Positions 2,161 through 44,589 of a stretch of DNA of 64,000 nt are shown here, in pieces. A model generated the notes under the pieces. The model had not been told where the DNA came from, did not search any database, and worked only from the letters and a program-made list of their open reading frames with translations. Source of the DNA: Candidatus Bathyarchaeia archaeon (GTDB taxonomy: Archaea; Thermoproteota; Bathyarchaeia; Bathyarchaeales; DTEX01); assembly GCA_038882715.1 (NCBI GenBank), contig JAVZNR010000004.1:46809-110808 (forward strand), in the 5' to 3' direction. The first letter of the stretch is position 1. The number at the start of each line of letters is the position of its first letter. The translations under genes were made by a program, and so were the position numbers.

Positions 2161-3498
2161 CTATTTAATTTTAGGGCAATCTTTATAGAGCAGGAGAACA
2201 GAATCGTTCTCAAAAGCTGGTCTGAGAGTTCGCCATCCGCCCCCTTCTAAAGTGCCATCTAGAATTGAGCTACCTAGGATCGGATGCATCCACTCTACTC
2301 TCAACCTTCCGCACGCTTCCCGCAGATCCACTTTAATTTCAACGTTAAATGGAGAGTAAATAATGTATGCTTTGCCAGGATCTGCTAAACAATACCCTGT
2401 TGACGCTAACTCTGGTAGCGGAAGCATATCTGCTAGATTAAAGCGAGATGCAAGTTTAACAGTGTTTCCCATAGCTCTGCGTATCTCTTCAGCGTACGGT
2501 ATATCTTCTGCCGGTGATAACCCCGCCCATGTTATTGTTTGATGAGACAAGGCAATTATCCTATCCATGAAGAGGACATTATGTCCGCGTGTAAAGCTCC
2601 TCCAAACCCACTGAGGATTACCTCCCTCACCCCACAGATGATCCGTGTCATTAAGGATAACTTTTGATCCGTCGTTCACCGGAGGATTATCTCGATAACC
2701 TCCCTCTGGATTCGGAGAGACCCAATCCGCTGGACTATTAAGGAGGTCGGCATTACTACCGCTATGTTTGTTACCGCCATACTGGAAGGTCATCCCAACC
2801 GGATGCTGCTTCAGCTTCTCTGCTTCATAAGATTTGATGAAATAGATAAGATAGTATTGCCACTCAGTTGAGTATTTACCTGCTTCATTGCAAACCTCGT
2901 AGAGTGCATTGTCAAACTCATTGACCGTGTCTATGACTTTGCGGACGTAGGCTTTCTGCAGTGCAAGCACTTCTTCATTTTTAAGAGTATAATAATCTAA
3001 TCGTCCACCATCTACACCATTTACATTATTCTCTGGGTGGAATGGATGAAATTCCCAGCCTTGAGCGGCAAATTGGGCGCAATGCCCCTCAAACAGCATA
3101 ATTGATACGTAGATCCCTCTCTCAGCAGCCAGCTCCACCCTCCTGCGGAGGCGCTCAAAATATGATTCGTCAAATTTATTCAGGTCGAACTTGGGTTTCT
3201 TGTCCAAAGCAAGTCCAGAACCTACACGTTTCCAAGGATGGGGCTGGCAGAACGAAAATGGTTTATCTAAAGTGTATCGCCATTTCGGCATCTCCCAGCG
3301 CCACAGTCGAATAAAGTTGTGTCCATACTTTTTAAGAAAGTCCAGGTACGCGGAGAAGTCAAATTCTAGCGGTGGATCACTTACACCCATATCCTGCAGA
3401 TTACACCATGTGTGTGAGCCTGCAAAATAAATGGCGCGTTCGCCGTCATCCGTGAAATACCGCGGGTTTCTTGGGTGAGGATAAATGGTGTATTTCAT
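2161..3498 (-). CDS. TIM-barrel glycoside hydrolase, clan GH-A like (GH5 / DUF4038-GH140-like); family not resolved
   Basis: 445-aa ORF with N-terminal RYFTDDGERAIYFAGSHTWCNLQD, a candidate acid/base Asn-Glu pair in YEVCNEAG, and aromatic-rich sequence typical of sugar-binding barrels. Confidence 0.5.
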   Translation of the reverse strand: MKYTIYPHPRNPRYFTDDGERAIYFAGSHTWCNLQDMGVSDPPLEFDFSAYLDFLKKYGHNFIRLWRWEMPKWRYTLDKPFSFCQPHPWKRVGSGLALDKKPKFDLNKFDESYFERLRRRVELAAERGIYVSIMLFEGHCAQFAAQGWEFHPFHPENNVNGVDGGRLDYYTLKNEEVLALQKAYVRKVIDTVNEFDNALYEVCNEAGKYSTEWQYYLIYFIKSYEAEKLKQHPVGMTFQYGGNKHSGSNADLLNSPADWVSPNPEGGYRDNPPVNDGSKVILNDTDHLWGEGGNPQWVWRSFTRGHNVLFMDRIIALSHQTITWAGLSPAEDIPYAEEIRRAMGNTVKLASRFNLADMLPLPELASTGYCLADPGKAYIIYSPFNVEIKVDLREACGRLRVEWMHPILGSSILDGTLEGGGWRTLRPAFENDSVLLLYKDCPKIK

Positions 3499-12179: not shown

Positions 12180-13331
12180 TCATATTATTCTTTGAACTGA
12201 TATCCCCAATTCACCAACCATTAAATCTAAGAATGATTTGTAGGCTTCCTCACCATTTTTTGCCCCCTCAATTATGGTTACCCCACTCTTTAAAACACTC
12301 GTTATGCCCCCAAACTCATTAAAGAAGGTTATTCCGAGCTCAGCCTTCACCTTGACCTTAAGGCCGCGCTCGCTAACTATCGTCGCAAGCCTATCTAAGT
12401 CGAGGTTAAGATTATCCCTAGGAGTTATTCTGAAGACCCTTCGTCCCTGTCTAGGATGCCCTTCAGATATCAATTTTCTCTCTAGAGGCATTGGTGAACC
12501 CGATGGGTTTAAACCGCATACCGGGCAGCTATCAACTCTACGTATCTCTATTTCTTCAAAGGATAAATCCCCAATATCACAGTAAAGCAGTTTGCCGGCT
12601 AAACGGGGCTTTTTGCCAAGAATTATTCTGATAGCTTCGGAAACCTCTATGCCTGATATCACGCTTAACAAGGATGTGTGAACACCCACGGTAGCGCACA
12701 TAGGTAACGTCTCGTCTCTGATGTTACCTTGAAAGCACTCAAGACACGGGGTTTCGCCGGGTATGATCGTTGTGACGTTGCCAAAAGTCATTATGGCAGC
12801 CGCGAATACATAGGGTATGCCAAGCCTCTGGCAAGCCCTATTTATCGCGTATCGCGGGGCCATTCTGTCAAGTCCATCAACAACGACATCTACGCCCCTA
12901 ATATTTTCTTCCGCATTCTCAGCGCTAATCGATGCGGGTATTGGTTCAACTTCTACATTAGGGTTTAATTCCTTTAATCTCTTGGCGGCGATCTCAACCT
13001 TAGGATACCCGATATTTTTTGCGCCATAAAGCAGTTGCCTATGTAGATTTGAGAGCTCCACAACATCCTGATCAATTAGACGTATATGCCCAACGCCTAT
13101 TGCAGCTAATTGTAGGGCGGTTGGAGAACCTAGGCCGCCCAATCCGGCGACGCAGACGCTTGACCCTTTAAGCTTAAGCTGCCCTTCGTAGCCTATCTCT
13201 GATAAGGCAATCTGCCGTGAGTAGAGCTCAAGCTCTTCATCTGAAAGGGTCTCGCTTTCAGCCCTATAATTCATAACTTGTCCTCCCATAAAAATTGCAT
13301 TGGCGCGTTCATTTAGATTTATCTTAAGCAA
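12180..13331 (-). CDS. ThiF/MoeB/UbaA-type E1-like ubiquitin-like-protein activating enzyme with an extra ~108-aa C-terminal domain
   Basis: YSRQ, the nucleotide loop GLGGLGS, SNLHRQ, two CxxC pairs (C196/C199, C269/C272) and candidate catalytic C212 (PMCATVGV). Residues ~275-383 are Cys-free, so this is not a catalytic rhodanese. Confidence 0.85.
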   Translation of the reverse strand: MLKINLNERANAIFMGGQVMNYRAESETLSDEELELYSRQIALSEIGYEGQLKLKGSSVCVAGLGGLGSPTALQLAAIGVGHIRLIDQDVVELSNLHRQLLYGAKNIGYPKVEIAAKRLKELNPNVEVEPIPASISAENAEENIRGVDVVVDGLDRMAPRYAINRACQRLGIPYVFAAAIMTFGNVTTIIPGETPCLECFQGNIRDETLPMCATVGVHTSLLSVISGIEVSEAIRIILGKKPRLAGKLLYCDIGDLSFEEIEIRRVDSCPVCGLNPSGSPMPLERKLISEGHPRQGRRVFRITPRDNLNLDLDRLATIVSERGLKVKVKAELGITFFNEFGGITSVLKSGVTIIEGAKNGEEAYKSFLDLMVGELGISVQRII

Positions 13332-13389: not shown

Positions 13390-14970
13390 ATGGCTGATAT
13401 ATGTCTTATCTTCGAGGTTCATCAACCTTTAAGGTTAAATCGCAGCTTTAACATGGAACTTCTCTCCAGAGGGAACGTTAGCATAAGCGATCTTTACAAA
13501 ATATACTTTGATGAAAAAACCAACAAAGAAATTTTTCTAAGGATCTGCGAGAGATGCTATCTTCCAGCGAGTAAGATAATATTGGAGCAGATAAATAAAT
13601 TTAGAGGGGGGCGAAACGAATTTAAAGTCTCATTTAGCTTCTCCGGGGTTTTTCTTGAGCAATGTGAAATGTGGAGCCCTGGCCCTGGTCTTCTCGATAT
13701 ATTTAAGCGGATGGTTGAGACAGGGTGCGTTGAACTGCTTTGCCAAACATATTATCACTCTCTTTCTAGCCTAAACACTGTCGATCGCTCAGAGTTCCCA
13801 GAACAAGTTGAGATGCACCGTGAGACTATAAAGAAGTTGTTTAACTATACACCGGAGACTTTTGAGAATACCGAGTGCATATATAACAATGAGATCGCGG
13901 AAAAAGTCGAGAAGCTTGGGTTTAAGGCGATAGTGACTGAAGGCGCCGATAGGATACTCGGCTGGAGGGCGCCGAACTTCGTCTATAAGGCTAAGGGCTC
14001 CTCCATCAAAGTCTTATTACGTAACTATAGGCTTTCCGATGATATAGGTTTTCGCTTCGCCTCAACCAAGTGGGATCAATGGCCCCTTACGGCAGATAAA
14101 TATGCGTCTTGGCTGGCACATACGCCTGGTCAAGTCATAGTCCTATTTTTAGATTATGAAACCTTCGGCGAGCATTATTGGGCCGAGAGCGGTATACTTG
14201 AATTTTTAAGATGGCTGCCTACTGAGGTTTGCAGGTGGGGAAATCTGCGTTGGGTAACGCCCTCTGAAGCTATTGAAAAACATGCTCCATGTGACATGAT
14301 AGATGTTCCGCCGGAGAAGACGATTTCATGGGCTGATGCTGAACGTGACACCAGCGCTTGGCTAAGTAACCCGCAACAGCAGATATCATTCAGCCTGCTT
14401 AATGAAATCGGCTTATTAGTTAAAGGGTTGAATGATAGCGACTTACTAAGGATCTGGCGCTACTTACAGATAAGCGATCACTTCTATTACATGTACACTA
14501 AAGGCGGCGAATCCGGCATAGTCCATGACTCGTTTAACCCTTACGGAAACCCTATTGAGGCCTTCATAACATATATGGGCGTGCTACTCGACTTTGAAGC
14601 CAGATGCAAAGCTGAGGTCAGTAAACCGGAATTTAAACATGTGCAGTTATTGAGACGTGTACCAGCTGGCAGAGAATTTAGGTTCTTCTATATGTTTGCT
14701 TCTCCCACGGACATAATTGCTGGCAGCCTTCAAGAGTTTTATGATGCCCTTAAAAAAGTGAGCGCTGAATCAATAGATTTTCATATGAGGCGAGGAGATT
14801 TTGAAAAGTGGATCGCCAACGTGATAGGTGATGCGGAGTTAGCTGCAAAGATAGAGAAACTGCCAAGAATTTGGGAAGATAAGGAAGATCTTCGGCGCGC
14901 ATTAGTAACCCTCCTTGAAGAAAGAATAAAGGAGTTGAAAGGAAAACATGCGAAGACAGTTGCTAAGTAA
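13390..14970 (+). CDS. glycoside hydrolase family 57 protein (alpha-amylase / alpha-glucan-active type) with an extra C-terminal module
   Basis: GH57 regions are present: FEVHQP, GCVELL..TYYH, ENTECIYNNE (candidate nucleophile Glu) and FLDYETFGEHYW (candidate acid/base Asp). C-terminal residues ~424-516 are homologous to ORF 21338..21901. Confidence 0.8.
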   Translation: MADICLIFEVHQPLRLNRSFNMELLSRGNVSISDLYKIYFDEKTNKEIFLRICERCYLPASKIILEQINKFRGGRNEFKVSFSFSGVFLEQCEMWSPGPGLLDIFKRMVETGCVELLCQTYYHSLSSLNTVDRSEFPEQVEMHRETIKKLFNYTPETFENTECIYNNEIAEKVEKLGFKAIVTEGADRILGWRAPNFVYKAKGSSIKVLLRNYRLSDDIGFRFASTKWDQWPLTADKYASWLAHTPGQVIVLFLDYETFGEHYWAESGILEFLRWLPTEVCRWGNLRWVTPSEAIEKHAPCDMIDVPPEKTISWADAERDTSAWLSNPQQQISFSLLNEIGLLVKGLNDSDLLRIWRYLQISDHFYYMYTKGGESGIVHDSFNPYGNPIEAFITYMGVLLDFEARCKAEVSKPEFKHVQLLRRVPAGREFRFFYMFASPTDIIAGSLQEFYDALKKVSAESIDFHMRRGDFEKWIANVIGDAELAAKIEKLPRIWEDKEDLRRALVTLLEERIKELKGKHAKTVAK

Positions 14971-14973
14971 TTT

Positions 14974-15321
14974 CTATCCTCTTATTGCCTTTTCTTTCTC
15001 CTCAAGTCTCCTAATTTCAAGAAAAATTTCGTCTCTTAATGTTTTTTCGTCAAACCATCTTTTACATTCAACACAGTAATGTGCATCATTAGCGTGCAAA
15101 GCGGGATCATCAAGGAATTTATGACCGACAGGACATCTTAGCAGAAATAGATTCAGTTTATTATTAAGATCTTTAAGCTCGCTAGAAGAAATTTTTAAGA
15201 CTTCTGTTATTTCAAAAATAGGATATTTTTCGAGATAAAGGATCTTAACAATTTCCTCTCTAGACAAACCATTTAATTGCATCTCCCTTACACGGTCTCT
15301 GATGGGTTTTCTGCTCAACAC
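14974..15321 (-). CDS. hypothetical small protein, putative HTH plus Cys/His zinc-ribbon-like motif
   Basis: N-terminal helix-rich segment (GLSREEIVKILYLEKYPIFEITEVL), then CPVGH...CVEC. No family recognised. Confidence 0.35.
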   Translation of the reverse strand: MLSRKPIRDRVREMQLNGLSREEIVKILYLEKYPIFEITEVLKISSSELKDLNNKLNLFLLRCPVGHKFLDDPALHANDAHYCVECKRWFDEKTLRDEIFLEIRRLEEKEKAIRG

Positions 15322-15325
15322 CCTA

Positions 15326-15562
15326 TCACCTAGGGTAGCTTGCTAGAACAATTCTCGTATCTGTGCCTTGAACCCCGTTAATCCCCCTAATCCTAAATAT
15401 TATTTTACTTAAATCATCTATGTTGCGTGCCGAAACTTTCGCTATTATGTCGATATCCCCCGCAACTTCATGTGCTTCTTCAACGCCCTCAATCTTCATT
15501 ATCTGAGAAGCGACCTTAGAGACTTGATCAACCTCGACCTTAATAAATACGAAAGCTATCAA
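15326..15562 (-). CDS. stand-alone Lrp/AsnC ligand-binding (RAM) domain protein
   Basis: 78 aa with the beta-alpha-beta-beta-alpha-beta RAM pattern: AFVFIKVE...V...I..I.GVEEAHEVAGDIDIIAKV...D...II..IR.I.GV..T.T. Confidence 0.65.
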   Translation of the reverse strand: MIAFVFIKVEVDQVSKVASQIMKIEGVEEAHEVAGDIDIIAKVSARNIDDLSKIIFRIRGINGVQGTDTRIVLASYPR

Positions 15563-15680
15563 TCAGCAAATTCCCCCTCAAATATTTTAAAGAAAGAATA
15601 AGCCATAAGTTTTTCTGTGCGACTTGAAGAAAATGTTAAATCTTATAGAAACTTTCTTTCTGTAATTAGGAGAACTCAAA

Positions 15681-16928
15681 ATGGAGATAGCCTTCTTCGT
15701 ATACGAGTTTCCGCCCTACATCGTTGGCGGGCTTGGGACGTACGCTGAATACTTAACGAGAGAGCTTGTTAAAATGGGGCATGACGTGACTGTTTTCGCA
15801 ATGCATACTAGGGATGCTCCGACAAGAGACATATATGGCGGTGTTGAAGTACATCGCCCGATAGTTGAAAACATGAATATCAGCCTGCTGTTACCCATGT
15901 TTATACCTGAAGAAATACAGCGTTGGACGGAGAGCGGCAAAAAATTCTTTGGGGACATCTTCCTCTACAACATACTTTCAGCGAGCAAGCTAGTGAACGA
16001 TTTAGTCAGAATGGAGAGAAGAAAAGTTGATTTAATTGTTTCACATGACTGGTTGGGTTCAATAGGTGGAATATTAGCCAGCAGGGGACTAGGTAAACCA
16101 TTTGTTTTCCATGTACATAGCACAGAGCAAGGGCGAACTGGCGATGGTTCGGATACTATTAAGCGTTTAGAGCGCCTAGCAGCCGATTTTGCTGAGAGAA
16201 TTATAACCGTAAGCTATGCTATGAGAGATCATCTTGTGAGCTTAGGTTACGACGAGAAGAAGATTCGGGTAGTCTACAATGGAATAGACGCTGAAAAATA
16301 TGCGCCTGAAAACGTTTCTCCAGAAGAAAGGCTATCCCTGCGGAAGAGTCTAGGCATAGCTGAAGATGAATTCATGATACTTTTTATAGGTAGGCTAACC
16401 TGGGTTAAAGGCGCGGACACTTTAATACTCGCCATGCCGGAGATTTTGAGCAGAGTGCCTAAGGCAAAGCTAGTTATAGTTGGTGTTGGGGAGCAAGAGG
16501 AGCTGCTGAAGGAGGAAGTTGCTAGACTTAACTTATATGATAAAGTAATCCTGAAATACGAGTTTCTGCCCGAGGATATGAGGATAAAGTTTTATGCTGC
16601 GGCTGACGTATGCGTCTTTCCATCCAAATATGAGCCGTTCGGCATAGTATGCACTGAAGCTATGAGTATGGGTAAACCTGTAGTTGTCGGCGCTAGAGGT
16701 GTAAGCGGCTTAAGGGAGCAGGTTGTCCCCTCTGGTCCGAATCAATGCGGTTTCCACATTAACCCCTATGATCCAAGCGACATAGCTAAATTTGTGTCGA
16801 TTCTCTTAGAGAGCGACGAGTTAAGGAAGAAGTGCGGCATCAATGCTAGGAAAAGAGTTTTAGAGATGTTTACATGGAAAACTGTCGCGGAAAACACCAT
16901 CAGAATATACAAGGAGGTTGCTCAGTGA
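15681..16928 (+). CDS. GT4 (group 1) glycosyltransferase
   Basis: N-terminal YEFPPYIVGGLGTY, and the C-terminal GT-B retaining signature FPSKYEPFGIVCTEAM (E-x7-E). Confidence 0.85.
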   Translation: MEIAFFVYEFPPYIVGGLGTYAEYLTRELVKMGHDVTVFAMHTRDAPTRDIYGGVEVHRPIVENMNISLLLPMFIPEEIQRWTESGKKFFGDIFLYNILSASKLVNDLVRMERRKVDLIVSHDWLGSIGGILASRGLGKPFVFHVHSTEQGRTGDGSDTIKRLERLAADFAERIITVSYAMRDHLVSLGYDEKKIRVVYNGIDAEKYAPENVSPEERLSLRKSLGIAEDEFMILFIGRLTWVKGADTLILAMPEILSRVPKAKLVIVGVGEQEELLKEEVARLNLYDKVILKYEFLPEDMRIKFYAAADVCVFPSKYEPFGIVCTEAMSMGKPVVVGARGVSGLREQVVPSGPNQCGFHINPYDPSDIAKFVSILLESDELRKKCGINARKRVLEMFTWKTVAENTIRIYKEVAQ

Positions 16929-17267
16929 AGGGAAACGTATAATAGGTCGATGACGACTTTTCTTCTCCAAAGAGCTGGTTAACAGAATGGAGGGCTCATT
17001 CAATTTTTGGCATATTATCGAAGAGTTTAGGCAAGTCCACCAAATCTACCCTGAAACCTTTAAGCGGATAACGTCTAATCCGTACCATCATGTTAAAGAA
17101 GGATTCTCCTTTAAGTCGATCCCCATCTCTTATGTTGCTTGGGCATCATATAGATCAATTCCAAACAATGCTTTTATCCAAACTAAACTAAATCTCGCTG
17201 GGGCAGAAAAATTGATAATCATGAAGTCATCTAGATATCACTAGCTTAACATACTGGCTGATAAACC

Positions 17268-18434
17268 ATGAATATATGTATGCTCAGCTGGGAATATCCC
17301 CCTAGAATAGTTGGCGGAATATCTAGACACTGCCATGGTTTAGCAAGAGCTCTTACAAAAATGGGGCATTCAGTACACTTGATCACATTAGATTTTCCCG
17401 GAGCACCATATTACGAAGAGGAAGAGGGCGTGAAGATACATAGAACTGCCATAGAATTAGGGCATCCAAACTTTATTGTCTGGGTCTTCCTCTTTAACCA
17501 TTTTATGGAGAAAAAAGTTGCTGCGATAAGAAAACATGAAAAGTTTGAAATAGTCCACGCTCACGATTGGCTTGTGGCTCCCGCCAGCATATCATCAAAA
17601 CATTATTTGAACGTGCCGCTTATCTCAACCATACACAGCACTGAGGTCGGCAGGTCGCGTGGTCTTCACAACCCGGATTCCTACCTGATTGATGGAATAG
17701 AATGGTGGCTGACCTACGAGTCAAAGAGAATTATTGTCGTGAGCAACTCTATGAAGTATGAGGTTAAAGAGCATTTCCGCCTCCCGGATGAAAAAATTGA
17801 TGTTATTCCCAACGCTATTGACTCGTCAAAGTACAGTGTTACGGTTAACCGTGATGAGGTGAAAAGGCGTTTCGGTATAGATCCATCTGAGAGAATAGTT
17901 CTTTTTATTGGAAGGCTTGTTCCGCAGAAGGGTGTAGAATACTTAATTATGGCTGCACCAAAAATAATTGGCCAGCATCCTGAGGCCAGAATAGTTATAG
18001 TTGGAGATGGTTGGTCGAAGGAGTATCTGCTGAATTTAGCGTCTTCAACTGGATGCCAGCATAAAATAACATTCCTAGGATTCTTATCAGACCAGGAATT
18101 AATTGAGTTAACTCTAAGTTCAGACGTTCTTGTTGTTCCGTCTGTTTATGAGCCGTTCGGCATAGTCGCCCTAGAGGGAATGGCGGCCGGAGTGCCAGTT
18201 GTAGCGAGCAATACTGGTGGTCTGTCTGAGATAATTGAGCATGATAAAACTGGTTTCTTAGCCTTTAGGGAGAACCCGGATTCGATAGCTTGGGGGGTCA
18301 ACAAGATACTCTCTGATCCAGGTTATGCGTCGTGGCTTACGCAAAATGCTAAAAGGAAGATCAATGAAGTATATAGCTGGGATGCAGTGGCGAGGAGAAC
18401 TGTTGAAACATATGAGAAGGCTCTTAAGGAGTGA
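17268..18434 (+). CDS. GT4 (group 1) glycosyltransferase (paralogue of 15681..16928)
   Basis: WEYPPRIVGGISRH, VPSVYEPFGIVALEGMAAG and GGLSEII. Confidence 0.85.
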   Translation: MNICMLSWEYPPRIVGGISRHCHGLARALTKMGHSVHLITLDFPGAPYYEEEEGVKIHRTAIELGHPNFIVWVFLFNHFMEKKVAAIRKHEKFEIVHAHDWLVAPASISSKHYLNVPLISTIHSTEVGRSRGLHNPDSYLIDGIEWWLTYESKRIIVVSNSMKYEVKEHFRLPDEKIDVIPNAIDSSKYSVTVNRDEVKRRFGIDPSERIVLFIGRLVPQKGVEYLIMAAPKIIGQHPEARIVIVGDGWSKEYLLNLASSTGCQHKITFLGFLSDQELIELTLSSDVLVVPSVYEPFGIVALEGMAAGVPVVASNTGGLSEIIEHDKTGFLAFRENPDSIAWGVNKILSDPGYASWLTQNAKRKINEVYSWDAVARRTVETYEKALKE

Positions 18435-18440: not shown

Positions 18441-18698
18441 ATGTCAAGTAAATTCACATCAATTCCGGACGAGATCTACCTACTTTGCATATTGCATAAT
18501 ATCGGCGCAACAGAACCGAATAAAGCATTAACACTTGAGGAGATATCGTACTGGACAGCTATGGATCCCTCTAAAGCCGAACAAAATCTCAATAAGCTCA
18601 TAGAGAATAGGTACGTTGAGGTCATGGAGACTATGGGCGCCAAAAGATACTTTGTGTCAGTCGGCGGAATAAGAAAGGTTCTAAGCATGTATAGCTAG
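18441..18698 (+). CDS. small hypothetical protein, possible winged-helix
   Basis: 85-aa ORF starting 6 nt after the GT4 stop. The pattern LTLEEISYWTAMDPSKAEQNLNKLIENRYVE resembles an HTH recognition helix plus wing. Weak. Confidence 0.35.
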   Translation: MSSKFTSIPDEIYLLCILHNIGATEPNKALTLEEISYWTAMDPSKAEQNLNKLIENRYVEVMETMGAKRYFVSVGGIRKVLSMYS

Positions 18699-18710: not shown

Positions 18711-20156
18711 TTAATGCTCCTTTCTCCCCTTAAACCTATTTATCTTTAGTGTGTAAGCATGCTCACAAGGTTTTCTTTCAGGCATTTTTACTCTCAGCCC
18801 ATCCTCGTTGCGGGTCCACTGCAACGGTTCTTCTACGCCTAGCATTTCGACGCTTCCAATTTCATAAGGATATAGCGTTAACATGGTGCTAAGCGACTTA
18901 ATTTCCGCTTCGCCGCCCGGCCAGTTTAGAAGTATTGCGAAGAGCGTATCGCCCTGTGATGTGAAGCGTATATCTTTGCCAGTAAACCGCTCACTGGCTT
19001 CCTCTTTAAACTCTCCTCCAATAACCTTTGTGGGTCCTTCCCCATAGACTGTCCATGGTCTTGAGCCGTAAATTGCTCCACCATTAATTTTAAGCCATTC
19101 CCCAACATCTAGGAGAATTTTCCGCTGCTCTTCAGGTATTGTTCCGTCTGGTTTTGGTGCTACGTTAAGTAGTAGGCAACCGTTCTTGCTAACTATATCG
19201 ACTAGATCGCTTATTATCAAACCCGCTGGCTTGTAATCGTGGTCTTTAATTTAGCCCCATGATTTCCTACATATCGACGTATCGGTCTGCCAAAAACTCT
19301 GTCTCATAACATCGGATTTTCCACGCTCAATGTCAAGTACAGCAGTACCCTCTGGGAAAGCATTATGCTTGTAGTTTATAACTACGCCAGTGCCCCACTC
19401 ATACGCACGATTATAGTAATAGGCTGCAAAAAACCTAAGATATGGTTCAAAAACCGGCTGCTCAATCCACCAATCGAACCAGAATATCTGAGGCTTATAT
19501 TTGTCCACCAGCTCGCAGGCTCGCCTAAGCCAATCGCTTAAGAACTCGTCATCTGGCTGCGTGCTAGACGGCTTTGCAGGACCATAAAAATCATAGTACT
19601 TCGGGTCTCTAACATCCGAGTTAAAATGCATCCCGCCCTCAAAGAACCACCAGTGCTCAGCCCTGTGATATGAAACCCCAAAGGCTAATCCCTCTCCGCG
19701 GACGGCTTCCGCCAACTCGCCAACTATATCGCGTTTAGGACCCATCCTCACCGAATTCCACCTAGTGTAGCTACAATCGTAGAGAGCGAAGCCATCGTGA
19801 TGCTCGGCAACTAAAACGACGTATCTGGCACCAGCCTCCCGAAATAGCTTAGCCCAATCTACCGGATCCCAATTCTCGGCTGTGAACATGGGTATAAAAT
19901 CCTTGTACCCAAACTTGTCATGAGGCCCATATGTCTCCAAATGATGGTAATAGGCTGGATGACCCCTAATATACATGTTTCTTGGATACCATTCGTTCTG
20001 GAAAGCTGGCACAGAGTAAACTCCCCAATGGATGAATATGCCGAATTTCGCATCCATATACCATCTTGGAAACCTATACTTCTTTAAGGAATCCCATGTT
20101 GGCTTAAATGGTCCTTTAGGTAGATTTGGAAGCCTTAGATTTGCGCTAAACAACAT
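18711..20156 (-). pseudogene. GH29 alpha-L-fucosidase interrupted by a single in-frame TAA (19251..19253); pseudogene, sequencing error or recoded gene
   Basis: ORFs 19251..20156 and 18711..19220 are in the same frame (both end coordinates are 2 mod 3). Read through, the joined translation is ...[43 protein letters not shown].... GH29 motifs are present: FGIFIHWGVYSVPA, AEHHDGF and [13 protein letters not shown]. Confidence 0.8.
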
Positions 20157-20187
20157 GCTTCACCCCAAACATCGCAAAAATATCAGC

Positions 20188-21234
20188 TTACATCTTTAGG
20201 GATTCCTCTTCCCTCTTAAAGGTTTCCCTTAAGTTTCTGGCAGCCTCCTCCGGCGGCATAGTGTTGATATACATTCCGGTGCTCTTTTCAAATCCAGCCC
20301 AAATGGCTAATTTAGGATAAACTTCAATATGCCAGTGATAATGTTTTTCCGGGATCATATGAAAACCAAGGTTGTAGGGAGGATCATTTAATAGGCTTCT
20401 TAAACCTCCAAAGCTAATTCTAAGCGCCTCAGCAAGATACCTAGTTTCTTCTCCCGTGAGCTCCAAAATCGATGACTGATGCCTTTTCGGAAATATCCAA
20501 AACTCAAATGGATTTATCGGGGCCCATGGTGCGAAAACTAGGAAATCAGCGTTCTCCCATATAAAACGCTCACTTTTAGCTTCCACTTCTATTATCTTGC
20601 AGAAAACACAATGTCCCTTCTCCGCATAATGTCTTTCGCTTGCAGATCTCTCCTCCTCTAATATCTTTGGGAGAATCGGTGTCGCTATTATTTGGCTGTG
20701 GGCATGCGACAGCGATGCGCCCGCGCTTACGCCATGATTTCTGAAAATCGACACGTACTTCACGTATTCCTTCGACATGAAGAATGAAACTCTGTCTTTT
20801 AGCGCATTTAATACATGGGTTAACTGCGTTATTCTAGCTACGCCTAGGTGCTCGTCATGATTCGGCGACTCAATTAAAACTTCGTGGTAGCCAAAGGCTC
20901 CCCTAGAGACATGGATATAATCGCCTTGAAAGCTTGAAGAACTCTCTGAGTTTTGTGGTGAAAACGCCGGATAAAGGTTAGGTATGCATCTAATGATCCA
21001 GTCCTTTCGGCGATCCCCATTTTTATCGTGGTCTTTCTTTAGCCCATCATCTTCCATGAAATATATCAGTGATGCTGGCGGGGTCAGATGCTCATTACCC
21101 GGACAGAATGGGCATATCGCTGCTCTTTTCTCCTCTCTCTGGTTTTCTATAAAGTCTGTGGGCCTCTTTCTCCTCTGTGAGGCGATGACAACCCACCTAT
21201 CTAAGATATAGTCTTTTCTCAGATCATTCACCAT
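20188..21234 (-). CDS. galT: galactose-1-phosphate uridylyltransferase-type HIT-superfamily nucleotidyltransferase
   Basis: Zn-site CPFCPGNEH and active-site HAHSQ (HxHxQ, compare HPHGQ of GalT). Two-half HIT architecture, 348 aa. Confidence 0.75.
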   Translation of the reverse strand: MVNDLRKDYILDRWVVIASQRRKRPTDFIENQREEKRAAICPFCPGNEHLTPPASLIYFMEDDGLKKDHDKNGDRRKDWIIRCIPNLYPAFSPQNSESSSSFQGDYIHVSRGAFGYHEVLIESPNHDEHLGVARITQLTHVLNALKDRVSFFMSKEYVKYVSIFRNHGVSAGASLSHAHSQIIATPILPKILEEERSASERHYAEKGHCVFCKIIEVEAKSERFIWENADFLVFAPWAPINPFEFWIFPKRHQSSILELTGEETRYLAEALRISFGGLRSLLNDPPYNLGFHMIPEKHYHWHIEVYPKLAIWAGFEKSTGMYINTMPPEEAARNLRETFKREEESLKM

Positions 21235-21337: not shown

Positions 21338-21901
21338 ATGGGGGAAATGAGCGAGGTTAAAATAGAGATCTTGAAATTCTTGTGGCAGTTTAATAGACCC
21401 GCCCGCTTAAAAGAAATATCTGAAGGAGTTGGTTTAGAAAAACGCTCGGTTAACATGCATCTCCTTAATCTTAAGAGGAAAGGTTATGTGAAGGCGCTCG
21501 GCGATGGTCTCTACGCTTTAACGGATTTGGGCAAAGAATTTTTGGGTTTTCCCAAAATTGATGAAAGCTTAGCTAGAAAAATTTTAAGCAAAGTTCCCTT
21601 TGAATTCGCTTTTCACTTCTATATTAGGGAGAACGAACCGCTGAACATTTCCTCGGATAGCTTAATTGAATTACGTGATAGAATTAGGGAAATAGACGCA
21701 AGATCCTTGGAGTTTCATTTCTTTCGAGGAGATTTCGAGAACTGGATTTCATTTCTAGGCGACTTAGAGCTCGCTAGTAGACTGGAGCTCATAAGAAAAT
21801 CTGACATCTCTAGCGAGGATCTTAGAGGGAAAATTTACGAATGCATAAAAGCAAGGTGCGACGAGCTCTTAAACCTCTGCGGAATTAAAAATGGCACTTA
21901 A
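21338..21901 (+). CDS. winged-helix DNA-binding protein fused to a ~95-aa module shared with the GH57 C-terminus (I believe this corresponds to Pfam DUF5752; unverified)
   Basis: N-terminal wHTH (ILKFLWQFNRPARLKEISEGVGLEKRSVNMHLLNLKRKGYV). Residues 86-178 align with GH57 residues 424-516, for example SLEFHFFRGDFENWISFLGDLELASRLE versus SIDFHMRRGDFEKWIANVIGDAELAAKIE. Confidence 0.6.
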   Translation: MGEMSEVKIEILKFLWQFNRPARLKEISEGVGLEKRSVNMHLLNLKRKGYVKALGDGLYALTDLGKEFLGFPKIDESLARKILSKVPFEFAFHFYIRENEPLNISSDSLIELRDRIREIDARSLEFHFFRGDFENWISFLGDLELASRLELIRKSDISSEDLRGKIYECIKARCDELLNLCGIKNGT

Positions 21902-22868
21902 AAGACGATAAAAAACTTTGGAAAAATCTTTCCTCATCCTCCTCACTCAATTTTCTCCTAAGGAAAAATGGTCTGCTAACATACGATGTGTATGTTATTG
22001 AGTATATGCGGTTCGACTTCGAGCAATACCACGTTAAATTTTTACATAGCATGGTTTTTCTCGTGAATAAGCCGGATTTACTTACACCATACCTATATAT
22101 GGCGTTGTGCCGCATGATCTTTTTACCCTCACTAGATTGGAAAGCGATATTTTTGTGGCTTTTTCTCAGGTCTTTCCAATAATTCTTCTGAAACCACGCA
22201 TCCACATCTTTATACGTGTCTTCAAAAATCACGTTTGCCATAGAAAAATACTCTATCGATAGACTTCTACCGATCTCAGCGAATGCAGAAAATTTTTGAT
22301 CCCTAAATGTCAAATATGTTCTTCCAACGGCGATTTTTCTTTCAGAAAGCAAAAAGCTGGAAGGAACGTTAAAACGAGTGTTTAACGCTGACCATGTCAC
22401 TGAATCTTCCTCTGTGTGGCACTTAAATGAGCCAAGTATACGTTCAACTATTTTTTCGCCTTCTTCAATAAGTGGCGATAAAGCAAAATGAGCTATGATT
22501 ATTCGACCACTCTTTTCACAAACCCAAATGTAGGTTGGCTCTTTTAGACCAGATCCGGTTTCGAGAAGCATGGAACGTGCGTTATGAGAAGAAATAAAGA
22601 TGTTTTCCATAACTTTAGCTTTCACGTCGACTTTCTTTTTTGCGGTCTTCTCAATAGTCTTTCTCGCACTATCAATAAATGATGCGGATATTTCTGCCAA
22701 AGATTTGGGCTTTTTCAGGTTAGCTTGCTCCCATTTAACTTCTAAAAACAGGTTTTCCATCTCAAGCCTAAAGTACCCTGAATTTATGTTTCCTCCCTCT
22801 GTTGCAAGGCGCATCTCTTCAGGAACTTGAAGCAGGAAACCATTCCAACCTAATTCTTTAAACTTCAA
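21885..22868 (-). CDS. hypothetical protein built from two tandem homologous ~160-aa halves
   Basis: Both halves show W..(x)..VP near their start and end with W.C.KS.RI...(E)E.E....L.SFKCH (IWVCEKSGRII...ILGSFKCH and TWYCSKSNRIY...FLSSFKCHF). No known family recognised. Confidence 0.5.
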   Translation of the reverse strand: MKFKELGWNGFLLQVPEEMRLATEGGNINSGYFRLEMENLFLEVKWEQANLKKPKSLAEISASFIDSARKTIEKTAKKKVDVKAKVMENIFISSHNARSMLLETGSGLKEPTYIWVCEKSGRIIIAHFALSPLIEEGEKIVERILGSFKCHTEEDSVTWSALNTRFNVPSSFLLSERKIAVGRTYLTFRDQKFSAFAEIGRSLSIEYFSMANVIFEDTYKDVDAWFQKNYWKDLRKSHKNIAFQSSEGKKIMRHNAIYRYGVSKSGLFTRKTMLCKNLTWYCSKSNRIYSITYTSYVSRPFFLRRKLSEEDEERFFQSFLSSFKCHF

Positions 22869-36493: not shown

Positions 36494-39400
36494 TCAAGAG
36501 GGTTTAATTAGCAAAGTCTTTATTTCAAATGGATTGATCTGTAGCCTAATTTTATTATCGAGAGTTTCGAGAGGTCTTATTGGCTCCTCCATTAAATCCG
36601 CTTCATAAGCCTCCTTTACACTAAAACTAAATTGTATTTCCATCAGGCCTCCTTCGCCAGAAGCATCGTAAACCCTAACCACCAAGCTGTTTCCTTCCTC
36701 AGCCTCCTTAAAGCATGAAACGACTATGTTGCTTGGCTTAACGTTGATGAAGCTCATCTCCTCATCTGCGCTGCCATGCTCTCTCCGATCTGGAACCGCG
36801 TATGCTATTAGTGGATGGTTTAGCTCCCACCCTCTTCTAAATGTCAGCGCCCTCTTCCAATCGTTTTTATGCGGGTATAACGCGTAAGTTATTTCATGAA
36901 TTCCCTGATCAGGCTTAGGATCGGGACTATAGCTGGTTCTGACAAGCGTCATTCTCACAGTATTACCTTTCACATCGAACCCGTGCTTGCAGGTACTTAT
37001 TATGCTTAGACCATACTCGTCATCGGATAGATCAACCCATCTCAGCGCGGGATACTCGGTTCCATCCGGAACCCTTTCAATGTATCCAAAAGGTATCTCA
37101 AACGTGGCTTTAGACATGTTAAGCATGGGTGTATAGGAGACCTTAAGCATGGGAGCGTCAGTTTCATCATCCGCTAACTCCTGCCAATTAATTAGCATCC
37201 GGAGATCTATTCGAGGCAAACCGTTATAGAGACTTATATATTGGGTAATTTCAGAGTTGCTATGCTTCCAAGAGACCTTGATCGTAGCTCTTACTGGACC
37301 TTTCTCTATGACCTCTGTTTTAGCCCCCCTTATAAGATTCTCTACACGAGATATTGGCCCGATTATCCATGCCGACATTGGATGAGGCGTCTCATATAAA
37401 ATTTGCATTAAATTGCTGAATACGGGTTTAGTGTAGGGGTACCGCTCCTCCTTGAATACAAACCTTCCGTTCACCTTATCATACAGCGTTTTTATTGTGC
37501 CTGAACCCTCATTTATCTCGATCTTAAAGTGGTCGTTCTCAAGCAGATTATGTTGGACTAGTAAGCTTGAACTGTTTTCTTCAGTGGAAGGTTCTTCAAC
37601 TATATAATATACTTTGTAACCTAGTGGTGGAACGCTGGCTAAAAATAATAATTCATCTTCGTGGATCTGAATCGGTCGCCTTTCCTTACCATCATAAGAT
37701 ATTGCGACAGCATTCTTTGGAAGAAGATTCTTAGGAACCTTTACTCTCACTATATCTGTTCTATCCCAAGAAAGAGTGTTGAAGACGATTATGGGTATGC
37801 CAGCTCTCGAATACTTTATCTTTTTAGAGAAGTTCGTCACCTTAAGATCTATTAAGTTTTTGGCAGCTTCAAACGTTTCCTGATAGAGATTTATTGGGTA
37901 TATATATGCTTCAGGGCTTCCACTCCCATCAAGAATATCATGGAATTGGTTAAAGAGCATTTTTAACCATAAGCCCTTCAAATCACTCTTATCGCCGGAT
38001 CCGGTTATAGCGCATATTTTCTCAGCGTCAATGAGTAGAGATTCACACAGCCTATTATATTTTTTGACGTCGCCATGAGTAGTGTAGCATCCATCAAAAG
38101 TGAACTGTAGTTCATCATTAATGACTGGTATTAGTAAACCTCGATCTTCGATCTCTTTTCTAACTTCATTAAAGAATCTATGTGTTGAACTAAAAACTAA
38201 GTCTGGTAAGGTGGGTTTTTTCCGCATCTCATACGTGTTCTCGATATCTTCCACCATAGCTCCTCCACCGTGGTCGCCTGCGCCATAGACAAACATGCTG
38301 GTTTTAAGGCCGTAGCGCTCGTAGAGATCTAAAACTAGATCTATTATGTTTCTCGGAGCCACAAAATTATTATAAATGCTTGTGAAAGCTAAAACCCTTG
38401 ATCCGTCGGGCCCCTCCCACCAGAAAATAGGATGACCTTTACCACAGCGCATAAAATAGTAGTATTTTATACTGAATTTTCTTAAAATCTGTGGCAGGGT
38501 CCATATGTGGCCAAATGTATCCGGCTCCCAACAGACCTCAGTTTTCACATTAAATTTCTCGTAAACATAATGTTTTGCGTATAAGAATTGTCTCAGTAGT
38601 GCTTCAGTGCCAGCCATGTTTAAGTCCGCTTCAACCCACATAGATGCAGTTACATCCCAGTTACCCCTCGTAACATATTGCCTTATCCTCTCAAATAAAT
38701 CTGGGAAACTCTCTTCAACGGTCTTATAAGTTACCGCCTGGCTCTGCGAGAAGTGAAAATCGCCATATTTGTCCATTAGATTAACCATCGTGGAAAAAGT
38801 ATTTTTAATGGTGTTGAGCGTATCTTCCCAAGGCCAAAGCCAGTTCATATCTATGTGAGCATGAGCCACCAAATGAACCCTAAATTTTTTTGCCTCAGCA
38901 GAGAGAGGCGAAATCTCCCTTCGAACCTTATCAATCTCATTCAGCAGATGCTGAAAACTTCCTTCAATGGCGCTAAGATCGAATTTTTCCAATATTTTAT
39001 CTGTAAAATCTTTGTTTAAAACCCTTGCGAATCTAATTTCTTCTATGAAAGACTCTATTTCAAACGCTATCTTTTCAATGTTGCTATAGGTCACGTAGAA
39101 TTGCGGTACATGGATTGGTTCATGCTTCGGAAATAAATGTATCGCTACAACATAGGTTTTTCCAGACTCTGTTCTCTCGTCTAAAATTACTCTTGGTCTG
39201 AGCTCCAGCCAATAGTCTGCACTTAAAACACGTCGCCCGTCAACGAACACCTCGCTTTTACCGAGTATTGCTGATGAATGAAGTTTTACAACAGATCCCG
39301 GAACCTCTATTCCATCAATTTTTTCTGGGACAGTTATTTTACATCTAAGCCACCCTTCACCTTTCCGAGCATCAAATACCATAGGTAACTTAGCTTGCTG

Positions 39401-39592
39401 CCATCGTGAATCATCAAAGTTGGGATCATAGGCTTCTAGGGCTTCACCTTGATAAAATTTCCAGGAAAGCTGGCTTCTGTACCCAGTTAAACTCTCGTAT
39501 CTTCTCCTTAAACCATCAACGATTTTTTCAAACGTTCCCTTGCTGTTATTCAGCGATGACCCTTCCTTCACGTGTTTTAGGGGGCAATTCAT
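36494..39592 (-). CDS. GH38 alpha-mannosidase
   Basis: 1032 aa with VAHAHIDMNWLW, PDTFGH and the QFHDILDGS context, all typical of GH38. Its ATG overlaps the upstream gene's TGA (ATGA at 39589..39592). Confidence 0.9.
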   Translation of the reverse strand: MNCPLKHVKEGSSLNNSKGTFEKIVDGLRRRYESLTGYRSQLSWKFYQGEALEAYDPNFDDSRWQQAKLPMVFDARKGEGWLRCKITVPEKIDGIEVPGSVVKLHSSAILGKSEVFVDGRRVLSADYWLELRPRVILDERTESGKTYVVAIHLFPKHEPIHVPQFYVTYSNIEKIAFEIESFIEEIRFARVLNKDFTDKILEKFDLSAIEGSFQHLLNEIDKVRREISPLSAEAKKFRVHLVAHAHIDMNWLWPWEDTLNTIKNTFSTMVNLMDKYGDFHFSQSQAVTYKTVEESFPDLFERIRQYVTRGNWDVTASMWVEADLNMAGTEALLRQFLYAKHYVYEKFNVKTEVCWEPDTFGHIWTLPQILRKFSIKYYYFMRCGKGHPIFWWEGPDGSRVLAFTSIYNNFVAPRNIIDLVLDLYERYGLKTSMFVYGAGDHGGGAMVEDIENTYEMRKKPTLPDLVFSSTHRFFNEVRKEIEDRGLLIPVINDELQFTFDGCYTTHGDVKKYNRLCESLLIDAEKICAITGSGDKSDLKGLWLKMLFNQFHDILDGSGSPEAYIYPINLYQETFEAAKNLIDLKVTNFSKKIKYSRAGIPIIVFNTLSWDRTDIVRVKVPKNLLPKNAVAISYDGKERRPIQIHEDELLFLASVPPLGYKVYYIVEEPSTEENSSSLLVQHNLLENDHFKIEINEGSGTIKTLYDKVNGRFVFKEERYPYTKPVFSNLMQILYETPHPMSAWIIGPISRVENLIRGAKTEVIEKGPVRATIKVSWKHSNSEITQYISLYNGLPRIDLRMLINWQELADDETDAPMLKVSYTPMLNMSKATFEIPFGYIERVPDGTEYPALRWVDLSDDEYGLSIISTCKHGFDVKGNTVRMTLVRTSYSPDPKPDQGIHEITYALYPHKNDWKRALTFRRGWELNHPLIAYAVPDRREHGSADEEMSFINVKPSNIVVSCFKEAEEGNSLVVRVYDASGEGGLMEIQFSFSVKEAYEADLMEEPIRPLETLDNKIRLQINPFEIKTLLIKPS

Positions 39593-40791
39593 TCAGGGAC
39601 ATTTATCCATCTGCCTTTCTCTGCGGAATCTAGTATTGCCTCCATAACCTCTTGGCACTTTAATCCATCATAGAAGGTTGCGCCTAAAGGTGCAATCGGC
39701 TTATCGTTAACTACGCAATCTATGAAGTGATGGATCTCATGGACAAATGTGTGCTCCCATCCAATTATGTGGCCGTGAGGCCACCAGTATTCGATATATG
39801 GATGAACGGTCTCCGTGACCAAGATATTTCTGAAACCCATTCTATCTGCAGGGTCTTTTCTCGAATATACTTCTAGCTCGTTTAGTCTCTCAAGGTTAAA
39901 GCATATTGTGCCCTCTGTGCCATGAATTTCTATTCTCTGGTAGTTTTTCCTTCCAGCGCAGAACCTTGAAGCCTCTAAGCTGCCTATCGCCCCATTCTTA
40001 AATCTGACAAGTGAGATGAAGGCGTCATCGACATCAACCTGCCCTTTCTTTGATGGGTCTTCTGGCAATGGACGTTCTTTAATAAATGTCTCCGTCATAC
40101 CGCAGACAGAGGAAATTTCCCCGATAAGGAACCTGGCCAAATCTATTATGTGTGAGCCTAAGTCCCCTAGGGCTCCTGCCCCCGCTACATCCTTACGAAG
40201 TCTCCAAACAAGTGGGAAATTGGGATCCATAATCCACTCCTGAAGGTAAACAGCTCTAAACTGTAGAATCTTTCCAATGTAACCCTCATCGATAAGTCTT
40301 TTAGATAATCTTATTGCCGGAACAAATCGGTAGTTGAAAGCCGTCATGTGTTTGACCCCGGCCTTCTCAGCCGCCCTATACATTTCTTCAGCTTCTTTCA
40401 CGGTGGTTGCCAGAGGTTTTTCGCAAAGAACATGCTTCCCACTTTCAGCAGCTTCGATAATTGGAGGGGCATGCATATTGTTCGGCAATCCGTTGTCCAC
40501 TATCTCAACGTTTTCGTCTTTAATCAGCGCCCTCCAGTCAGTATAATATTTCTCGAACCCATATCTTTTAGCGGCCTCAGCAACAGCTTTCTCAGTCCTT
40601 CCAAATATTGCTACTAATCTTGGCTTCGCAGGGGGAGGATAGAAGAATATTGGCATCTTTATATACGCGTTTGCGTGAGCTTTACCCATAAATGCGTAGC
40701 CAAGTAAGCCTACGCCTATCTCCTTAATCTCCTTCACTTCGCCTGCAACCTTACCCATCCTTACGAAACCTACTTCCTTCTCCTCAGGCAT
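39589..40791 (-). CDS. Gfo/Idh/MocA family NAD(P)-dependent oxidoreductase
   Basis: Rossmann-type N-terminus IGVGLLGYAFMGKAH, the GFO family motif LCEKPLA, and a C-terminal alpha/beta dimerisation domain. Confidence 0.85.
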   Translation of the reverse strand: MPEEKEVGFVRMGKVAGEVKEIKEIGVGLLGYAFMGKAHANAYIKMPIFFYPPPAKPRLVAIFGRTEKAVAEAAKRYGFEKYYTDWRALIKDENVEIVDNGLPNNMHAPPIIEAAESGKHVLCEKPLATTVKEAEEMYRAAEKAGVKHMTAFNYRFVPAIRLSKRLIDEGYIGKILQFRAVYLQEWIMDPNFPLVWRLRKDVAGAGALGDLGSHIIDLARFLIGEISSVCGMTETFIKERPLPEDPSKKGQVDVDDAFISLVRFKNGAIGSLEASRFCAGRKNYQRIEIHGTEGTICFNLERLNELEVYSRKDPADRMGFRNILVTETVHPYIEYWWPHGHIIGWEHTFVHEIHHFIDCVVNDKPIAPLGATFYDGLKCQEVMEAILDSAEKGRWINVPE

Positions 40792-40798
40792 CGCTATC

Positions 40799-41761
40799 TC
40801 ACCACCAAACCTTCTCTAATGGAGCTTTGATGATTAAAGGCTTTAAGAAAGCTATACATTTCTCGCAGCCATCTTCCCTGCTCATAACCGGATCTTCATG
40901 CTCATAGCTTAATACATAATCGTATCCAACCTCAACAAAAGCCGTCAATATCCTTTTCCAGTTCACGTCGCCCCAGCCGACGACACGAAATCTAAAACCT
41001 CTATCCGGTCTACGCCATGAGCCGGTAGGTATGCAACCAGATATTGGAAGATTCTCTTTAACAAGCTCAGCGTCTTTTGCGTGCGCATGGTAAATCCTGT
41101 CACCGAATTTTTTGATGAACACTACTGGATCAATGCCCTGCCAGACAAGATGGCTCGGGTCAAAATTAAAGCCGAACTCTTTCTTACCGTTTATGGCTTT
41201 AATCGCTCGTTCGGCTGTCTCAATATTATAAGCCTGCTCCTGCGGGTGAACTTCATGCGCGAACTTTACGCCGTGAGCCGCAAAATGATCTAGGATTTCT
41301 CCCCAGCGCTCAGCGAAAACCTCAAATCCCCTCTCAAAAATCTTCTCGTATGCTGGCGGAAAGATATACCATGCGCCCCAGTTTGGAGCCCCAATAAAAC
41401 CGTTTACTACAGGGACATCTAGAGCTGCGGCGGCTTCGGCCGTCTTCTTCATGCGCTCCACACCGTACTTAACTTTTTCCTCAGGGGTCCCCTTAAACCA
41501 TTCATCGGTCGACTCGTCGTGAGGGCCTAAAACAAGTTGTCCCTCGAGATGGTTGCTCAATGCTGAAATCATTAGACCATATTTCTCCACGGTCCTCTTG
41601 TATTCGGATGCGCCTCCACTAAGAATCTTCTCTATATTTATGTGATTGCTTCCTTTCCAAGCGGCTATCTCTACAGCCTCATAGCCAAGCTTTGAGACGT
41701 ATTCTAAGACTTTCTCGAGACTTAGCTCGTTGAACAGTATTGTGAATATACCTATCTTCAA
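40799..41761 (-). CDS. xylose-isomerase-like TIM barrel ('sugar phosphate isomerase/epimerase' family)
   Basis: GYEAVEI, HEVHP, NFDPSHL, YHAHAKD and SYEHED, the metal-ligand pattern of the AP-endonuclease-2/xylose-isomerase fold. It ends 7 nt upstream of the GFO gene. Confidence 0.85.
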   Translation of the reverse strand: MKIGIFTILFNELSLEKVLEYVSKLGYEAVEIAAWKGSNHINIEKILSGGASEYKRTVEKYGLMISALSNHLEGQLVLGPHDESTDEWFKGTPEEKVKYGVERMKKTAEAAAALDVPVVNGFIGAPNWGAWYIFPPAYEKIFERGFEVFAERWGEILDHFAAHGVKFAHEVHPQEQAYNIETAERAIKAINGKKEFGFNFDPSHLVWQGIDPVVFIKKFGDRIYHAHAKDAELVKENLPISGCIPTGSWRRPDRGFRFRVVGWGDVNWKRILTAFVEVGYDYVLSYEHEDPVMSREDGCEKCIAFLKPLIIKAPLEKVWW

Positions 41762-41821
41762 ATTAAACCCCCCATTCTGACAAAAATATTTATGCTGAAT
41801 GCTAATAAATATCTTTGGGAA

Positions 41822-42052
41822 CTAAAGATCGTCAACATCGGTAGCTTCTTCCTCTTCCTGTTTTTCATAGTTTTTCTCTAAGTAGTATCTTCTCGTTCTT
41901 ATATCGCAGCCGATTTTACCTTCCTCAAAGAGTTTACGCAGAGACCTAAAGACGGCTTTAGGCGCCTTATTTAATTTCTCAGCTATCTCCATTAGAGTTA
42001 AAGGTTCAGACTCCTTTAGAAGGCTTAAGATTTCATCTTCCAGTTTACCCAT
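41822..42052 (-). CDS. small winged-helix protein with acidic tail; candidate local regulator
   Basis: 76 aa, ILSLLKESEPLTLMEIAEKLNKAPKAVFRSLRKLFEEGKI. It sits at the head of the TIM-GFO-GH38 gene string and is divergent from the GFO gene at 42174. Confidence 0.5.
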   Translation of the reverse strand: MGKLEDEILSLLKESEPLTLMEIAEKLNKAPKAVFRSLRKLFEEGKIGCDIRTRRYYLEKNYEKQEEEEATDVDDL

Positions 42053-42173
42053 AAAGTAAACCTCCTTTTATCAGAGGATTATTATTGAAAATTTAAATCT
42101 TTAGCTTAGCCGACATTAGTTCAAACCCGTCTATCCATAATCCTTAAATTGGCATAAGGTTAATCTTAAACCC

Positions 42174-43319: not shown

Positions 43320-43372
43320 CCCCCTTATTTCTTTATAATCGAATATGGGGAAATTTTCGTCGCAAAAATAGG

Positions 43373-44578: not shown

Positions 44579-44589
44579 CCTGATTTTAT

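Follow-up and report, generated by a model that had tools for sequence, protein, structure and literature searches.

Does a TAA codon inside a conserved archaeal enzyme gene mark a recoded stop, an error in an assembly, or a gene that has only just been broken? The question arises at a glycoside hydrolase family 29 (GH29) alpha-L-fucosidase gene on contig JAVZNR010000004.1 (assembly GCA_038882715.1, Candidatus Bathyarchaeia, genus DTEX01), of which we analyzed a stretch of 64 kb, hereafter the window. An initial annotation of the window, made without database searches, offered three explanations: a fresh nonsense pseudogene, a sequencing or assembly error, and stop-codon readthrough. Comparison with conspecific and related genomes, structure prediction and the published record on archaeal recoding together make it very probable that the TAA is a real, recent and lineage-restricted nonsense mutation (TAC to TAA at Tyr302), and the gene a young pseudogene or loss-of-function polymorphism.

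One gene, one frame and a lost tyrosine codon

Minus-strand translation of positions 18711-20156 gives, in a single frame, the two segments listed in Table 1, the TAA between them and a terminal TAA. This confirms the initial description of two open reading frames (ORFs) in one frame with a lone stop; the junction reads TGG GGC TAA ATT AAA and the frame is unchanged across it. Homology also continues through the TAA, as the initial annotation had proposed. The PF01120 (Alpha_L_fucos) profile is matched 5' of the stop with E = 5e-79 and resumes 3' of it with E = 2e-18, PF16757 (Fucosidase_C) follows with E = 6e-13, and the best solved-structure matches, 7snk and 7ljj (E = 4e-140), align continuously over residues 24-473 and carry Tyr at the interrupted column. 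Because PF01120 is matched on both sides of the TAA with PF16757 after it, this is one gene cut in two and not a pair of neighbours. The gene product is a cytoplasmic GH29 alpha-L-fucosidase with both the catalytic and the C-terminal domain of the family; what the window copy lacks is an uninterrupted frame. By homology, the catalytic residues are presumed to be Asp228 (codon 19475..19473, motif FWFDWW) and Glu277 (codon 19328..19326, motif DIERG), both 5' of the TAA. In the 45-sequence alignment (A1) these residues are invariant (D227 and E276 in the numbering of the intact protein P0001), and the 7lnp variant has Asn at the column aligned with the presumed catalytic Asp.

Intact copies of the gene exist in the same species. 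Searching with the conceptual full-length fucosidase, with Tyr placed at the stop, returned a 480-residue protein (P0001) that is 100% identical to the query and annotated as alpha-L-fucosidase in Candidatus Bathyarchaeia metagenome-assembled genomes (MAGs). A 481-residue entry (P0122) reflects an alternative start call, P0001 beginning one codon later; the two are found together on 12 contigs, and apart from the TAA codon the window gene is identical to both. At the DNA level, the codon is TAC in eight conspecific loci (L002, L003 and L006-L011), which match the window with 99.93-99.97% identity over 8-21 kb. The sole difference inside the codon between the window and these near-identical loci is position 19251, which is T on the plus strand of the window (A in the codon) and G on the plus strand of the intact alleles. 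The stop is thus one nucleotide from a sense codon, as had been noted initially.

The same column was followed across 77 species-level relatives drawn from GTDB representative genomes: 72 carry Tyr (TAC in 49, TAT in 23), five carry Phe (TTC or TTT) and none carries a stop. The column is invariant in alignment A1, and the gene is uninterrupted in 10 of 10 archaeal sister-species loci (L012-L021, 70-90% amino-acid identity). The statement in the initial annotation that the residue after SWG is normally Tyr is therefore borne out by 7snk and 7ljj, by the 45-sequence alignment and by 72 of the 77 species, and the orthologue comparison that it suggested returns TAC or TAT in relatives (Phe in five) and no TAA. 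Since all relatives carry Tyr or Phe and the conspecific alleles carry TAC, TAC is ancestral, and a single transversion, C to A on the coding strand, gave rise to TAA.

Two further observations concern the wider family. In the bacterial MAG homologues L037, L076, L078, L079 and L081, tblastn shows in-frame stops or cross-frame breaks; none of them lies at the Tyr302 column, and they may be sporadic pseudogenes or MAG errors. Many bacterial loci (L034-L048 and other Chloroflexota) also hold a second, distant GH29 paralogue (~26-29% identity) directly downstream of the orthologue, a tandem arrangement not seen in the archaeal loci.

A real base confined to one clonal sublineage

The TAA recurs in three other assemblies, each of which shows 100% identity to the window throughout the DNA compared: the Logan assembly of SRR27170999 (L001, 12.9 kb compared), GCA_038873035.1 (L004, 4.7 kb) and GCA_038871275.1 (L005, 10.3 kb). 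The Logan assembly contains fucosidase fragments of 301 and 169 amino acids. NCBI annotation holds C-terminal fragments of 135 and 86 amino acids under four accessions, and both of those that were traced come from TAA-carrying MAGs; taken over gene callers, the C-terminal fragments span 86-169 amino acids. In the Tengchong hot-spring survey, each sample was assembled separately (PMC11770067).

The portion of the supplementary table of PMC11094006 used here assigns five MAGs to samples and places all of them in Bathyarchaeia, order B26-1, family B26-1, genus DTEX01. Two carry TAA, namely JAVZFB (DRTY-6_201803_bins_34, L004) and JAVZIM (DRTY-6_201901_bins_44, L005), and three carry TAC, namely JAWBTV (JZ-1_201709_bins_52), JAWBXP (JZ-1_201803_bins_94) and JAWBZF (JZ-1_201901_bins_52). 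On these assignments, the TAA allele was recovered from spring DRTY-6 in March 2018 and again ten months later, in January 2019, and the neighbouring spring JZ-1 yielded the intact TAC allele on three dates (201709, 201803 and 201901). One part of this table lists no further DTEX01 MAG from DRTY-6.

Variation around the gene was tabulated over the ~21.4 kb shared with L002-L011 (window positions 8711-30156). Seven sites (9068, 10038, 12109, 13016, 14807, 19251 and 21223) set the TAA haplotype apart from all of the TAC haplotypes. The TAA copies are identical among themselves, and the TAC haplotypes differ from each other at other sites. Seven fixed differences in ~21.4 kb correspond to ~0.03% divergence of the TAA sublineage. 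The TAA haplotype is one clonal sublineage and the stop, being linked to six other haplotype differences, is a lineage marker and not noise.

These results bear directly on whether the stop is an artefact. Were it a sequencing or assembly error, the true base would be C, the codon TAC and the gene intact; the difference is a single base, MAG consensus sequences contain occasional errors, and the support comes from assemblies and not from reads. However, the same A appears in samples of two dates, each assembled on its own, and again in a Logan assembly produced by another assembler and pipeline, and the TAA is in perfect linkage with six other haplotype-specific single-nucleotide polymorphisms. 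The error that the initial annotation had listed is thus very unlikely.

A different kind of artefact is visible in one intact genome. L009 (JZ-1_201709_bins_52) contains two 99-nt runs of N, at 13061-13159 and 20446-20544, which are scaffold gaps; one of them makes an aldehyde-dehydrogenase gene look split (198 and 223 amino acids), an assembly artefact and no lesion.

Among the conspecific MAGs, 16 sites are variable, of which 12 are non-synonymous (including the nonsense change), three synonymous and one intergenic. A share of 12 non-synonymous sites in 16 fits very young variation, as yet unfiltered by selection. As a side observation, the ratio of non-synonymous to synonymous changes at these 16 sites is very high for variation within a species. 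Sites 9492, 15293, 19890, 20545, 20624 and 23399 are mosaic among the TAC haplotypes, which suggests recombination.

The age of the allele determines how the intact look of the gene should be read. At ~0.03% divergence, the 537 nt 3' of the stop should have gained only ~0.2 further substitutions, so the intactness of the downstream half says nothing on decay. The initial annotation had seen no lesion in either half other than the stop and had taken this as an argument against old decay; the observation stands, for none was seen, and the argument is void at so low an expectation. A TAA restricted to a clonal sublineage diverged by ~0.03% is too young for further lesions to be expected. This is also a caution for genome scans, where undecayed sequence is uninformative when the allele is only ~0.03% from intact alleles.

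Translation of the interrupted gene

With the base established, the question becomes what the cell makes of it. One answer is leaky or programmed readthrough, in which UAA would be decoded by a near-cognate tRNA; with tRNA-Tyr the wild-type protein would be restored, and the sublineage would keep a hypomorphic fucosidase. Both halves are in frame and intact, the TAA allele was seen at two sampling dates, yeast inserts Tyr, Gln and Lys at UAA (PMC4150775), which makes Tyr insertion mechanistically conceivable, and one archaeal GH29 gene, Sulfolobus fucA1, is already known to be recoded, with 5-10% -1 frameshifting (PMC1616953). Against this, a programmed stop would be conserved in orthologues, and here it occurs in 0 of 77 species and is TAC in the eight conspecific loci, so that it shows no evolutionary maintenance. 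Moreover, the sequence on either side of the stop is the same as in the TAC alleles, and no stimulatory cis element can therefore have co-evolved with the stop; the intactness of the halves is uninformative at 0.03% divergence.

The immediate context of the codon is that of an ordinary terminator. TAA ends 27 of the 60 long ORFs in the window, the fucosidase included (26 of the 59 others). At the stops, the most frequent tetranucleotide is TAAA (12 of 60), so that genuine terminators there most often read TAA followed by A. The 132 nt from just before the TAA fold no better than shuffled sequences (z = -0.31). Within the window data we found neither a context that would be leaky by the standard of the window's own terminators nor a stimulatory structure, and ARAGORN detected no tRNA gene in the 64 kb. 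Archaeal recoding, as reviewed, comprises selenocysteine (Sec) at UGA, pyrrolysine (Pyl) at UAG and -1 frameshifting (PMC8211752); known stop recoding in archaea concerns only UGA and UAG, and we found no case of UAA readthrough in archaea in the literature. We consider readthrough improbable, and the initial suggestion of it is unsupported: the stop is unconserved, the TAAA context is ordinary, the fold is unremarkable and the flanks are unchanged. A more specific version, which we regard as a slightly longer shot still, is that the TAA allele is alive, with UAA misread at hot-spring temperature by near-cognate tRNA-Tyr and a functional fucosidase strongly down-regulated as a result. If true, this would make the allele the first case of functional UAA readthrough found in nature in an archaeon, and it would show at an early stage how recoded genes of the Sulfolobus fucA1 kind might originate.

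A further alternative, reassignment of TAA to a sense codon throughout the genome, has only the in-frame stop itself in its favour. Elsewhere in the window, however, TAA closes 26 of 59 long ORFs, at places where homologous proteins end too, and conspecific genomes use TAC for Tyr at this very site. In a six-frame scan of the window, nine stops were flanked on both sides by 80 or more open codons. Two long-ORF junctions besides the fucosidase were checked with Pfam and separate unrelated adjacent genes (e.g. an enolase-superfamily protein and a GFO/IDH/MocA oxidoreductase), and the stop at 18432..18434 sits between a glycosyltransferase family 4 (GT4) gene and an 85-residue ORF that has no Pfam match. 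By the ORF list, the remaining five apparently lie opposite larger ORFs in other strands or frames, and their homology was not examined. With these five set apart, no junction in the 64 kb other than that of the fucosidase was shown to have homology to one family across the stop. We rejected reassignment, the chance of which is negligible, on the ground that TAA is the commonest terminator among the 60 long ORFs of the window.

What termination at residue 301 would remove can be read from an AlphaFold2 model of the intact allele (mean predicted local distance difference test (pLDDT) 92.1, predicted template modelling score (pTM) 0.91; model numbering is one lower than that of the window). The stop falls just past strand 288-293, between strand 7 and helix 7 of the barrel. 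Lost by truncation are helix 310-322, strand 325-331, helix 341-360 and, in full, the C-terminal beta-sandwich (365-473). The 179 codons beyond the stop would be translated only by way of readthrough or reinitiation. The 301-residue fragment keeps the catalytic Asp and Glu and is without the last beta-alpha unit of the (beta/alpha)8 barrel. Judging from the model, it is most likely misfolded and inactive.

Could the missing part be supplied separately? The first in-frame start 3' of the TAA is a TTG at 19220, 11 codons on, which would give a 169-residue product holding the missing barrel elements and the C-terminal domain. Together with the 301-residue piece, such a product could in principle form a non-covalent split fucosidase, and the annotated C-terminal fragments from gene callers fall in the corresponding range of 86-169 amino acids. 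No Shine-Dalgarno-like motif precedes the TTG, however, unlike the genuine ATG with its GGGGTGA, and in the AlphaFold2 model the cut lies inside the barrel and not at a domain boundary. Furthermore, no relative has such a split architecture, and in Sulfolobus the products of the separate fucA1 ORFs were not observed (PMC1616953). A two-piece enzyme is highly improbable, and reinitiation at TTG 19220 was rejected for want of a Shine-Dalgarno-like motif and because of the cut inside the barrel.

A nonsense mutation fits these results best. The stop arose from an ancestral sense codon, it is restricted to one lineage, and the variant is present in independent assemblies. The fresh nonsense pseudogene among the initial options is supported by the TAC of conspecifics at 99.93-99.97% identity. 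A C-to-A change on the coding strand at 19251 occurred in an uncultured thermophilic species of DTEX01 Bathyarchaeia (order B26-1) of the Tengchong hot springs. Translation would end at the TAA and leave a 301-residue fragment, the fucosidase most probably being inactivated. One clonal sublineage carries the TAA, both sample-identified carriers coming from DRTY-6, and the same species keeps the intact gene in JZ-1 and elsewhere. The gene looks undecayed only for want of time. Its loss may have been neutral, hitch-hiking or adaptive.

Several points weigh against this interpretation. The spring-specific pattern rests on five genomes (two TAA and three TAC MAGs), and the TAA is known at the level of assemblies, although an uninterrupted 47.7-kb Logan contig and the consensus sequences of two MAGs all carry it. 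The loss of function is deduced from the structural extent of the truncation. The TAA allele also persisted for at least 10 months in DRTY-6, which fits a neutral or adaptive loss and is compatible with residual function as well.

A recent nonsense mutation at Tyr302 is an event of a known and ordinary kind. It has little bearing on translation biology, and the gene should stay off candidate lists of recoded archaeal genes. Its value is modest: it is a clean strain-level gene inactivation in a natural population of uncultured Bathyarchaeia, usable for studying how hot-spring archaea lose the capacity to degrade glycans and how their populations turn over.

Genomic surroundings and known systems

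The fucosidase has a close partner in a gene of the galactose-1-phosphate uridylyltransferase (GalT) family (Table 1), which lies 31 nt upstream on the same strand; the same pair occurs in L012-L015, and the two genes are probably co-transcribed. The GalT-like protein differs between strains by D230E (20545), A204V (20624) and D4E (21223), all non-synonymous and without a synonymous change in the gene; by comparison with outgroups, the Asp4 of the window is the derived state. The 2-kb GalT-fucosidase pair holds 4 of the 4 differences from L003 and 5 of the 12 from L002. This clustering hints at relaxed or diversifying selection, or at recombination at the two-gene unit.

Table 1. Coordinates of the interrupted fucosidase gene, its parts and its upstream partner (window positions).
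Feature	Position	Strand	Basis or remark
GH29 alpha-L-fucosidase gene, disrupted	18711..20156	-	482 codon positions including two stops; translation, Pfam, PDB homologues
Premature TAA in place of Tyr302	19251..19253	-	directly after ...CRKSWG
N-terminal ORF, 301 codons	19254..20156	-	PF01120 profile positions 12-285; presumed catalytic Asp and Glu inside
Downstream segment, 179 codons and normal TAA (18713..18711)	18711..19250	-	PF01120 profile positions 290-344; PF16757
Putative Shine-Dalgarno-like GGGGTGA, 3 nt ahead of the fucosidase ATG	20160..20166	-	reading of the sequence only
GalT-like gene (galactose-1-phosphate uridylyltransferase family)	20188..21234	-	PF01087, PF16268, PF02744

Further along the window, positions 36494-53170 form a dense carbohydrate-catabolism region with a GH38 alpha-mannosidase (36494-39592), four GFO/IDH/MocA oxidoreductases, three xylose-isomerase-like TIM-barrel proteins, an enolase-superfamily (MR_MLE_C) protein, an amidohydrolase and a 2-hydroxyacid dehydrogenase. 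By this gene content, the organism would seem to degrade glycans and sugar acids. On the other side of the fucosidase, Pfam matches at 13390-18434 identify a GH57 protein (13390-14970) and two GT4 glycosyltransferases (15681-16928 and 17268-18434), and there is a regulator of the AsnC type nearby; these genes may serve the synthesis of glycogen or another glycan and have no relation to fucose. ORFs of 85 residues (18441-18698, plus strand) and 327 residues (21885-22868, minus strand) have no Pfam match and stand beside the fucosidase-GalT pair in every conspecific locus. A 445-residue ORF at 2161-3498 (minus strand) weakly matches DUF6298 and an apiosidase-like catalytic domain and may be an uncharacterised glycoside hydrolase.

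One of the closest known systems is fucA1 of Sulfolobus (Saccharolobus) solfataricus, to which the initial annotation had pointed. It too is a GH29 gene in an archaeal host annotated as two ORFs. Its expression relies on a programmed -1 frameshift at the slippery heptamer A-AAA-AAT, within a 40-nt overlap of an 81-residue and a 426-residue ORF, with a putative stem-loop and flanking rare codons, and yields 5-10% full-length protein (PMC1616953). The precedent is real, but the mechanism differs. A -1 frameshift joins different frames overlapping at an X-XXY-YYZ heptamer, whereas the two ORFs here share a frame and are parted by a plain TAA at residue 302, with no slippery site or RNA structure and with a stop that is unconserved. 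The positions differ as well: aligned with the present protein, the fucA1 frameshift site falls on an FGYK motif (approximately residue 82-85) that precedes Tyr302 by ~220 codons, and a positional link between the two sites was rejected for this reason.

Archaeal Sec and Pyl recoding likewise places an in-frame stop within a conserved enzyme gene. They rely on UGA or UAG together with dedicated tRNAs and cis elements, and their orthologues share the stop (PMC8211752). In contrast, the codon here is UAA, orthologues carry Tyr, the window holds no tRNA, and no cis element is evident.

As an enzyme, the intact allele resembles its closest solved homologues, the BpGH29 exo-alpha-L-galactosidase/alpha-L-fucosidase (7ljj and 7snk) and Thermotoga maritima TmFuc (1hl8; E = 2e-64). 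Aligned over residues 24-473, both share the catalytic Asp and Glu motifs and carry Tyr at the mutated column. They differ in being bacterial and intact, and the 7ljj and 7snk chains are ~110 residues longer than the archaeal enzyme. The fucosidase label is given by homology, and the specificity of the archaeal enzyme could be for fucosides or for L-galactosides.

The closest match overall is with ordinary nonsense pseudogenes and loss-of-function polymorphisms: a one-base change, an intact conspecific ancestor, clonal restriction, the loss of essential structure and no compensation. Nothing essential sets the present allele apart from these; it is notable only for its place in a hot-spring time series, in one spring and at two dates.

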